Origin: a virus
Lineage: Duplodnaviria; Heunggongvirae; Uroviricota; Caudoviricetes
IMG/VR virus record: IMGVR_UViG_2778261535_000012
Coordinates: 1 to 36,784 of that record
Length of the DNA: 36,784 bases
Strand: one strand, 5' to 3'
This document shows positions 1 through 3,617 of the stretch, in pieces; the first letter of the stretch is position 1, and each line of letters begins with the position of its first letter. Below the pieces are notes generated by a model. The model did no database searches. It was not told the origin of the DNA and saw nothing but the letters and a program-made list of their open reading frames with translations. The position numbers and the translations under genes are program-made.

Positions 1-999
1 ACCTACAGAAAAATCAAAGTCAGTATGGGTAGTAGAGCCTGCCGGTGTATCTGGTGCTGTAGTCCATAACTTAATCGTATTATCTATATTCTGTACCGCT
101 ATTCCCTGATGACCCAGCCTGTCCTCAGGAAGCATAAAATCAGAAGATGTGTTTTTAATTTTTGAATCAGCAGAATATTTATTCCAGACAGAAACAGTCG
201 TAGGGTTTCCATCTATTTCTGTATTGTGATTGGAATAATAAGCTCTGCTTACAGGATCATATGCAAAAGTTTGCAATGTTCTTATTCGTCCGCGACCATT
301 AGCAATTGGTATAAACCGTATAGCAGAATTAGCTTCATGCCCAATGGCATTAACGTCCCATGCAGGTCGCTTGCTTGTAACTAGTTCGCCATTAACAGGA
401 ATGACTTTTCCGCCAACCAACCATTTCCCGTTAATATAGGTATTCCTGAAAAATGTTCTGGAGGTAAAATAAGTTTTACCGCGCATATCAACAACCATGG
501 ATGTAACATCATCTTCCAGTTGTTCAAATGCCTGCGTATCATCCGCAATGCCATCACCTTTTGCTCCCCAGCCGCGTGGATCTGTTTCATCACGCCATCG
601 TGCAATCTGCAATTCTGGATATTTTTTAGCACCATCCGGGTCTTCTAATTGCTGCCGTAGCTGGTCAGGGTCGTACTTCAGCACATTAGGAAAATTGAAC
701 TGCTGAGCACCATACGCATCATAAACAGCCATAGAATGACCCTGCACAGTAACGAACTTGGCAATCTGTCCGTTATATACCGGATATCCAGCAGCGTTAA
801 TGATGATTGGTTGCGAAACAGGAACGTGAGAGCCGTCTTCGTTTTCCACATAAACCTGAATCTGGTTTTCAGGATTTACAGGGTCAGTGTCAATTTTTCC
901 GATATAAATTTTGCCATTGGCTACGGCTTTAAAAGAACGCGCCATAGTGAATAGTTGCGATGGCATACTCACTACAACATTGGCTGTAATGTCTGTCAT
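1..999 (-). CDS. Tailspike protein, N-terminal part (333 codons, open to window edge)
   Basis: Hand translation from ATG at 999 (GGAG 8 nt upstream) gives [34 protein letters not shown]..., which matches the P22-family tailspike head-binding domain from memory. No in-frame stop down to position 1. The downstream part diverges and contains a [12 protein letters not shown] beta-helix-type motif. Confidence 0.85.
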
Positions 1000-2097: not shown

Positions 2098-2301
2098 TCA
2101 ACTTTCTGCTCTATCAGTTATATCTTTCCCTTCGTATACTTCACCTATATTGCTAATGCTGGCAGAACATCCAAGATGCTTGTATCTTATGATGTCCAAC
2201 ACGCAGTCACTACACAGCATCCGACCTGTTTCTTTAGAGTAAATGTATGTTTGATCAGCGTCTGATTCGCTAATGCCGCAGAAACAACATTCTTTACTCA
2301 T
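2098..2301 (-). CDS. Small Cys-rich protein (zinc-ribbon-like, CxC...CxxC), unknown function
   Basis: 67-aa ORF; its ATG overlaps the arc-like stop (ATGA), which suggests translational coupling. Cysteine pairs CCFC and CSDC. Confidence 0.5.
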
Positions 2302-2543: not shown

Positions 2544-2795
2544 ATGTCTGATCGTAAGTACAAAAACCCTCAAGTGAATCTGAGGCTTCCTGTAGAGATA
2601 AAGGAACGTCTTATTGAGCTGGCTGAGGCTAATTCTCGTTCATTAAATGCTGAGATGGTAGCAGCACTTGAGGCATGGACTGAAAAAAATAAACATATTC
2701 AAGCACTAGATCTTGCAACTATAGCATCGCGGTTGATAGAGCTTGAGCATGAGGTTGAGAAGTTAAAATGTATGCATGGCAACAGTGAAAAATGA
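2544..2795 (+). CDS. mnt: Mnt-like RHH repressor (maintenance of lysogeny)
   Basis: 83 aa, same length as P22 Mnt; N-terminal RHH pattern (NLRLPVEIKERL...ANSRSLNAEMV); divergent from arc. Confidence 0.7.
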   Translation: MSDRKYKNPQVNLRLPVEIKERLIELAEANSRSLNAEMVAALEAWTEKNKHIQALDLATIASRLIELEHEVEKLKCMHGNSEK

Positions 2796-3106
2796 AACGT
2801 ATCGCTATTTTGTTAATATTGTTCTTCTCTACAATAGTTTGCGCCAAACAAAAATCAGATAATGGCGATCTTAAAGGCCTGCAAGAACTCATGATAACTT
2901 CGAAATTTGCTGGCATGTGCGGCACAATCAAACAAATGGCAACATTTCAAGAATCAACAAAAATGCCTGGCGGAGATGAGTTCTTACAGCGTTTTCTGAC
3001 CACAGAGCAAGCAAGACTAGGAATGAATCCACAGGAGTTTCTTGAAACATGCCAGAAGTCAATTTCAGCTTATACCAATTATTACAATCTAACTTCTGAT
3101 AAATAA
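2792..3106 (+). CDS. Exported protein with N-terminal signal peptide, unknown function (moron)
   Basis: MKRIAILLILFFSTIVCAKQ signal-peptide-like N-terminus; ATG overlaps mnt stop (ATGA). Confidence 0.6.
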   Translation: MKRIAILLILFFSTIVCAKQKSDNGDLKGLQELMITSKFAGMCGTIKQMATFQESTKMPGGDEFLQRFLTTEQARLGMNPQEFLETCQKSISAYTNYYNLTSDK

Positions 3107-3131: not shown

Positions 3132-3617
3132 ATGAAAAAATCACTATTAATTATCCCGCTTCTGCTGGCTGGATGCGCAAAAGTAAGTGACTACCAAGCA
3201 AGTTGCGAACAACGCTATCCAAAGCTTAGTGATATGGCTAATTGCCTTGATGCCAGCGTGAAGAACGACTCACGCATGGCATCAGCACCAACACCTAAGC
3301 TGTATGTCCTTGCTGCGAAGATGCTCGGGCAAGGTGTCGATGAAGGCAAGATAAGTGACGCACAGGCAAGACTTGAGCTTCAGAATCTTTACGTTCAATT
3401 ACAAAGCCAAGAACAAGCCCAACAAATAGCGCAAAGCCAAGCATTCCAGCAGGCTTTATTGAATTATCAGGCTGTAAACACAATGCAAGCGATCGAGCAA
3501 AAAGCGCGCCAGCCTGTTATAACTCAACCTTACCCAACACGCGTTGACACATATACAAACTGCAATTCAGGATTTGGAAACACGGTAACATGCAACAGTA
3601 GCAGTAATATCAGGTAG
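3132..3617 (+). CDS. Lipoprotein with Q-rich C-terminal region, unknown function (moron)
   Basis: MKKSLLIIPLLLAGCAK has a lipobox (LAGC); occupies the position of sieA in P22 between mnt and gene 16. Confidence 0.65.
   Translation: MKKSLLIIPLLLAGCAKVSDYQASCEQRYPKLSDMANCLDASVKNDSRMASAPTPKLYVLAAKMLGQGVDEGKISDAQARLELQNLYVQLQSQEQAQQIAQSQAFQQALLNYQAVNTMQAIEQKARQPVITQPYPTRVDTYTNCNSGFGNTVTCNSSSNIR

Follow-up and report, generated by a model that had tools for sequence, protein, structure and literature searches.

A P22-type tailspike with a predicted five-bladed propeller receptor module in an HK620-like Escherichia coli prophage

The tailspike gene and its prophage setting

We analysed a stretch of viral DNA of 36,784 nucleotides, hereafter the window. 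A tailspike gene lies on the minus strand at its left end. The ATG at positions 997-999 is preceded, 8 nt upstream, by a GGAG (Shine-Dalgarno) sequence, and the frame remains open through base 1, where the window edge cuts the gene off. The initial annotation had described the tailspike as truncated by the window, and this is borne out: 333 codons are visible, compared with 829-835 amino acids in full-length relatives. The portion of the gene past base 1 could be damaged. The same annotation had assigned the tailspike to positions 1-660. This range contains the linker, the cap and the first ~1.75 blades of the receptor domain, but it leaves out the head-binding domain. The features of the locus are compiled in Table 1.

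Table 1. Features of the tailspike locus, in window coordinates
Feature	Positions	Strand	Basis
Pair of terminator-like hairpins separating the antirepressor gene (1100-2101) from the tailspike start codon	1027..1082	-	Consensus scan, 2 sites vs 0.2 expected
Head-binding (tail-anchoring) domain, residues 1-113	661..999	-	Pfam PF09008 and identity to CUS-3 and AST215
Linker, residues 114-142	574..660	-	Identity to CUS-3, the P0021 type and AST215
GxxGDGxxDDT motif, residues 143-154	538..573	-	Direct sequence reading
Small alpha/beta cap domain of the endosialidase N-terminal-extension type, residues ~141-219	343..579	-	Weak PF12218 match and model
Visible part of the receptor domain, remainder beyond the window	1..327	-	
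GHQG motif, residues 296-299, directly before the inner strand of blade 2	103..114	-	Conservation in relatives

The gene occupies the position typical of P22-like tailspikes, with an antirepressor gene (PF10547, PF10548) and two Arc-like genes directly upstream. The prophage is HK620-like and belongs to the P22 family (96% identical to HK620 across 70% of 24 kb), and open reading frames run through the regions for head, tail and lysis. At its right end, the window consists of host DNA and includes cscB, a sucrose permease gene of the LacY family (35537-36784, minus strand; Pfam E 9e-194); torI and other prophage genes lie just inside, at about 33200-35500. The presence of torI and of host cscB places the prophage in an E. 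coli chromosome, and the position of cscB beside prophage genes indicates that a prophage-host junction falls within the window. ARAGORN detected no tRNA in the window. By analogy with E. coli strain AST215, where intS and a tRNA-Arg follow the tailspike gene, the integrase must lie past base 1.

Several small genes in this neighbourhood were recorded in passing. A 67-aa open reading frame between the antirepressor and Arc-like genes (2098-2301, minus strand) has no Pfam match; its paired cysteines (CCFC ... CSDC) suggest a small zinc-binding protein. Two plus-strand genes are located between the Arc/Mnt-like regulators and a DNA-transfer gene, one coding for a 104-aa protein with a signal-peptide-like N terminus (2792-3106) and the other for a protein of 161 aa that contains a lipoprotein box (LLAGC; 3132-3617). 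Neither could be assigned to a Pfam family, and both could be prophage 'moron' or exclusion genes.

The N-terminal residues 1-113 match the Pfam family Head_binding (PF09008) over all 113 profile positions (E 8.4e-67, 223 bits, cut-off 24), in line with the initial annotation, which had called the gene a tailspike and had matched its first ~115 residues to the conserved head-binding domain of the P22 family. For the related tailspike of AST215, matches extend to the Sf6 and P22 head-binding domains whose structures have been solved (E 3e-58 to 2e-41). This part of the protein is thus the trimeric head-binding domain, through which the spike is inserted into the tail. The linker behind it is common to many E. 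coli P22-like tailspikes with differing receptor modules; it is 80% identical to that of CUS-3, 90% to that of a 799-aa protein of the P0021 type and 97% to that of AST215, and it leads into an exchangeable receptor module. At the nucleotide level, HK620 and Sf6 are similar only over gene positions 1-339 (residues 1-113) and CUS-3 over positions 1-405, and the best E. coli prophage genes among the matches listed extend over positions 1-464 or 1-473. The divergence noted earlier past the head-binding domain is therefore real, likeness to HK620, Sf6 and CUS-3 stopping at about residue 113-135, and an exchanged receptor module on a conserved head-binding domain was correctly proposed.

The protein encoded in the window is itself mosaic: in the head-binding domain it shares 97% identity with CUS-3 but 85% with AST215, whereas from the linker through the cap into the propeller part its identity to AST215 is 96-97%. 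This arrangement points to a recent recombination at the anchor-linker boundary. When window positions 574-999 were compared with loci L001 and L003, the anchor was seen to be CUS-3-like and everything past about residue 113 AST215-like.

Cap, propeller and chaperone of the receptor module

The receptor module starts with the GxxGDGxxDDT motif, which had already been spotted and had been taken as typical of pectate-lyase-like beta-helix depolymerases. The motif is present, and it does head beta-helix enzymes, but it is common to endosialidases as well, and no beta-helix follows it here. In the fragment, residues 146-180 of the cap region align with the endosialidase N-terminal family End_N_terminal (PF12218) below its cut-off (E 1e-3, 19.2 bits, cut-off 26.3), and this cut-off is passed by 5 of the 10 distant relatives scanned. 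The family profile aligns the motif region to the depolymerase Dpo31 (E 4e-11), at the junction preceding the Dpo31 beta-helix, and to residues 6-42 of endosialidase NF (E 7e-4); the motif also aligns to fungal beta-1,3-glucanases. Judged by these alignments, it is an N-terminal cap element of beta-helix enzymes (Dpo31, fungal beta-1,3-glucanases) and of endosialidases alike, a likeness that goes beyond chance. Consistently, GxxGDGxxDDT has been described as a shared cap element that is not predictive of the downstream fold (PMC13317679).

We modelled residues 137-565 of P0011, a 97%-identical relative standing in for the window protein, as a monomer with AlphaFold2, using a 101-sequence alignment. 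The model is confident (pLDDT 92.4, pTM 0.92) and supersedes one of the complete P0011 sequence, for which 10 aligned sequences had given a pLDDT of 51. It consists of a small alpha/beta cap, in which model residues 8-86 form helices and strands with pLDDT ~93-98, followed by an all-beta domain. The best structural matches of the model are five-bladed propellers. Foldseek retrieved the phi11, 80alpha, NF5 and P68 proteins at E 4e-13 to 4e-10, and the top match in BFVD is the neck appendage protein of phage GA-1 (E 3.5e-18). The propeller can be superposed on phi11 Gp45 and on the P68 tail fibre, and neither a tailspike nor a pectate-lyase beta-helix is found in the best structural matches listed. 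The structure-based search of the receptor domain, which the initial annotation had proposed, gave five-bladed phage propellers rather than beta-helix tailspikes among the best matches listed.

The Pfam family PF21311 ('phage 5-bladed beta propeller receptor binding platform') scores 20.0 bits on the closest full-length relative, a partial-profile match below the cut-off of 23.7; the cut-off is passed by 7 of the 10 distant relatives scanned (28.8-48.8 bits), most of these ten ending in an S74 or G2 chaperone. A profile of the 101-member family detects phi11 Gp45 with 54.4 bits in two stretches, which correspond to blades 1-2 and 4-5 and in which the conserved motifs are aligned. Because Gp45 is found by a sequence profile with its motifs in register, we regard the two propellers as homologous, beyond a resemblance in fold. 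PDB sequence searches gave no match for the propeller itself. In the full-length AST215 relative, a region outside the window matches Peptidase_S74 (PF13884, E 5.7e-11) and PDB entry 3GW6 (E 2.9e-34). Other family resources add little: neither the fragment nor the full-length homologue belongs to an NCBIfam family or to a pectate-lyase or beta-helix Pfam family, PHROGs offers generic 'tail spike' families only, and the protein is not identical to any characterised tailspike.

These findings together establish the order of the module as a cap, a five-bladed propeller homologous to the phi11 Gp45/P68 'platform', a short stalk and an S74 chaperone, the latter two being seen in relatives that are 96-97% identical. 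The receptor module is hence built like an endosialidase spike with a different core.

Relatives of the module and a lead to its receptor

A word-indexed protein search with the window fragment returned 10 matches, mostly partial, including the nearest database entry, P0001; full-length relatives were recovered with a central-region query from AST215. These are 829-891 aa long, and in them the propeller is followed by a stalk and, at the C terminus, by an S74 chaperone of the endosialidase type. Close relatives are rare: the module occurs in 1 of 5,426 complete E. coli genomes, that of strain AST215 (92% nucleotide identity, 829-aa product annotated 'phage tailspike protein'), and in 1 of 50,697 phage records, that of the N4-like Escherichia phage Pollock. 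Its carriers are E. coli and Escherichia marmotae. The module is found on at least three anchor types, P22-like, epsilon15-like and N4-like (Pollock). It is joined to the head-binding anchor in P0011 (835 aa), to an N terminus that we take to be of the epsilon15 type in the prophage protein P0012 (891 aa), to a CBA120-type N terminus in P0016 and to short N termini in P0013-15.

The wider family is much larger. A HMMER search with a central-region profile found 517 representatives at E<=1e-3, only three of the 50%-identity clusters included being close. Other E. coli head-binding tailspikes fall into the same propeller family profile, namely P0019, P0020/P0021, P0050, P0053 and P0054. The type thus recurs in prophages, which suggests a recurrent, unannotated propeller class among P22-like tailspikes. 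This class appears to be devoid of a characterised member. Neither a scan of P0021 nor its precomputed annotation, the latter common to P0020, contains an S74 chaperone. Two side observations concern the same proteins. In the 799-aa P0021 type, which has 262 cluster members, Pfam sees the head-binding domain only, and E. coli 19AR1724 encodes a head-binding tailspike matching the same propeller family profile (L004:3501-5900). Our literature search returned no studies of Pollock gp76 or of any close relative, and Pas et al. 2023 and DepoCatalog mention neither propellers nor the present receptor module.

The initial annotation considered receptor specificity beyond what can be inferred from the sequence, and we agree, apart from a weak lead to O169 that comes from one genome, AST215. 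The O-antigen locus of this strain (L007:36172-49001) has kept a glycosyltransferase gene and an O169-family wzx beside gnd. In place of the other genes of the cluster there are now transposase genes of the ISAs1 family and a partial integrase-core pseudogene, which are followed by colanic-acid genes. With its O-antigen cluster reduced in this way, AST215, the sole complete-genome host of this tailspike type, is now probably rough or O-non-typeable. O169 is a serogroup associated with enterotoxigenic E. coli (ETEC). The position of the retained glycosyltransferase gene fits the described O169 cluster (PMC7685785), and the strain used to isolate Pollock was an enterotoxigenic E. coli whose serotype is not stated (PMC4319500). 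The AST215 remnant thus provides a weak lead to an O169-type O-antigen as the receptor; no O169-specific tailspike was found described in the literature.

Proposed function, alternatives and comparison with known systems

We analysed conservation among 93 distant relatives (~19-30% identical to the query). Residues Q243, D248, G296-H297-Q298-G299 and W312 inside the window, and R340, R397, D409, N/Q434, D439, E492 and E494 beyond it, are 81-100% conserved. They are located on or beside the inner strands of successive blades, and in propellers such inner-strand positions line the central channel. The GH of the GHQG motif aligns to the 'GGHGT' of phi11 Gp45. Two patterns, Q/E-x-x-A-x-D-G and R-x-F, recur from blade to blade, and several of the conserved residues may be structural rather than functional.

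We consider it probable that the gene product is the tailspike of an HK620-like E. coli prophage of the P22 family, with the propeller serving as a glycan-recognition module. The spike would be a trimer displaying three propellers. Judging from strand topology, each propeller may form a pocket at the mouth of its central channel, lined by Q243, H297 and Q298 together with N434, E492 and E494 from beyond the window. The propellers of phi11 and P68 have been described as platforms that bind the GlcNAc of wall teichoic acid, with a central cavity as the proposed site (PMC4901313, PMC6795507), which is why we take the propeller to be a unit of glycan recognition. By analogy, the predicted pocket would bind a sugar unit from a polysaccharide on the host surface. 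This polysaccharide is most likely the O-antigen, as with other P22-like prophages, given that in prophages of Lederbergvirus and Uetakevirus the receptor module varies with the O-serogroup of the host (PMC10408124). The S74 chaperone would fold the stalk and then be cut off, as in the endosialidases.

Two alternatives concern the fold. The initial annotation envisaged a pectate-lyase-like right-handed beta-helix depolymerase after the head-binding domain. This idea draws on the cap motif, which heads beta-helix enzymes and aligns to the junction before the Dpo31 helix and to fungal glucanases, and on PF12708 scores in three distant relatives. The best stretches of these scores cover profile positions 1-23, 2-24 and 2-63 of 213 in the motif region, two of them the motif alone, and the single protein whose match reaches position 63 stays below the cut-off. 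Neither the fragment nor the 829-aa homologue matches PF12708 at E<=0.1, and the confident model is a cap with a five-bladed propeller. We thus reject the beta-helix assignment, which the model contradicts and which now appears extremely improbable. A diverged endosialidase, a depolymerase of K1/K92 polysialic acid like those of CUS-3 or K1F, would share the chassis of cap motif, propeller, stalk and S74 chaperone, and the similarity of the linker to its CUS-3 counterpart points the same way. CUS-3-type proteins carry the six-bladed sialidase propeller (PF12217) and the beta-barrel (PF12195), however, and both are missing from the fragment and the full-length homologue. Furthermore, hhalign against CUS-3 aligns the C-terminal chaperone region only, and the best structural matches are five-bladed propellers and not endosialidases. 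On these grounds, an endosialidase is rejected too, as a reading with next to no likelihood.

The remaining alternatives concern what the propeller does. It might be a polysaccharide-degrading or -modifying enzyme, representing an uncharacterised family of five-bladed O-antigen or capsule depolymerases with conserved His, Asp and Glu residues as active site. We regard this as a serious contender, though on balance rather less than an even prospect. To our knowledge, all characterised P22-family tailspikes are enzymes, the CUS-3 tailspike being annotated as an endosialidase, so that a purely binding role would be unusual. Twelve polar residues are conserved among the 93 relatives, and His, Asp and Glu are frequent in the conserved set; glycosidases are numerous among five-bladed propellers; and Klebsiella surveys list n-bladed propellers among depolymerase folds (PMC12491483). 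On the other hand, the same conserved residues are present in phi11 Gp45, which has been reported only as a binding adhesin (PMC4901313), the activity of propeller-type phage proteins has been described as unclear (PMC12491483), and several of the residues follow the blade-to-blade repeat. The gene might also be a decaying remnant in a cryptic prophage without current function, as the 333 visible codons and the partial nearest entry P0001 could indicate. All 999 bases are open, however, with a start codon and a Shine-Dalgarno sequence in place, the receptor part is 96-98% identical to intact genes for 829-835 aa, and reading frames are open across the prophage genes for head, tail and lysis. 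We thus set aside this reading, which we consider improbable.

On the usual view, P22-like podophages need beta-helix or sialidase enzymes to get through the surface polysaccharide. It is conceivable, if somewhat doubtful, that such a phage here relies instead, in one of two ways, on a receptor module of common origin with the platform by which phages of Gram-positive bacteria bind teichoic acid. The spike would either be non-enzymatic and lectin-like, or it would be the first of an uncharacterised catalytic class in which five-bladed propellers depolymerise O-antigen or capsule, the target possibly being an O169-type O-antigen of enterotoxigenic E. coli. A lectin-type spike would require a different route through the O-antigen layer.

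Our knowledge of P22-like tailspikes comes nearly entirely from beta-helix enzymes and one endosialidase. A phi11-like five-bladed propeller on an endosialidase-like chassis represents a third type of module, which other E. coli prophage subtypes also carry and which moves between P22-like, epsilon15-like and N4-like phages. Tailspike receptor modules set which strains can be infected, and they are used in phage engineering, as serotyping reagents and as depolymerase therapeutics. The role of propeller folds in phages was called unclear in a Klebsiella survey (PMC12491483); a tractable E. coli case with a virulent relative, Pollock, would make this question testable.

We compared the module with known systems. 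The P22, Sf6 and HK620 tailspikes share the head-binding domain and the gene position, but their receptor domains are right-handed beta-helix endoglycosidases and the likeness stops at about residue 113. The endosialidases of CUS-3 and K1F (GH58; PDB 1V0E, 3GVJ, 3GW6) have the same order of anchor, cap motif, propeller, stalk and C-terminal chaperone, the latter being cleaved off; in the family described here, a five-bladed phi11-type propeller replaces the six-bladed sialidase propeller and its inserted beta-barrel. The propeller core in turn resembles Staphylococcus phage phi11 Gp45 (PDB 5EFV) and the related P68 tail fibre (6IAB), 80alpha RBP (6V8I) and NF5 RBP (9M7X). These proteins serve phages of Gram-positive hosts and recognise GlcNAc on wall teichoic acid, are only ~17% identical, and have a coiled-coil stem at the N terminus and a 'tower' at the C terminus, but neither a GxxGDGxxDDT cap domain nor an S74 chaperone. 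The neck appendage protein of Bacillus phage GA-1 (Q9FZW3; chaperone PDB 3GUD) has a homologous C-terminal chaperone, but it belongs to the phage of a Gram-positive host and has a different anchor. In Pollock gp76 (AIX12435.1), the same module (83% identity to P0011 over 428 residues, 87% to the propeller part of the window protein) with stalk and chaperone as in the other module relatives is mounted on an N4-type anchor of ~390 residues, in a virulent Schitoviridae phage (PMC4319500). The tailspike described here is a domain swap within a well-known modular system and not a new type of system: its anchor belongs to the P22 tailspike family, and its core to the phi11 Gp45-type platform.
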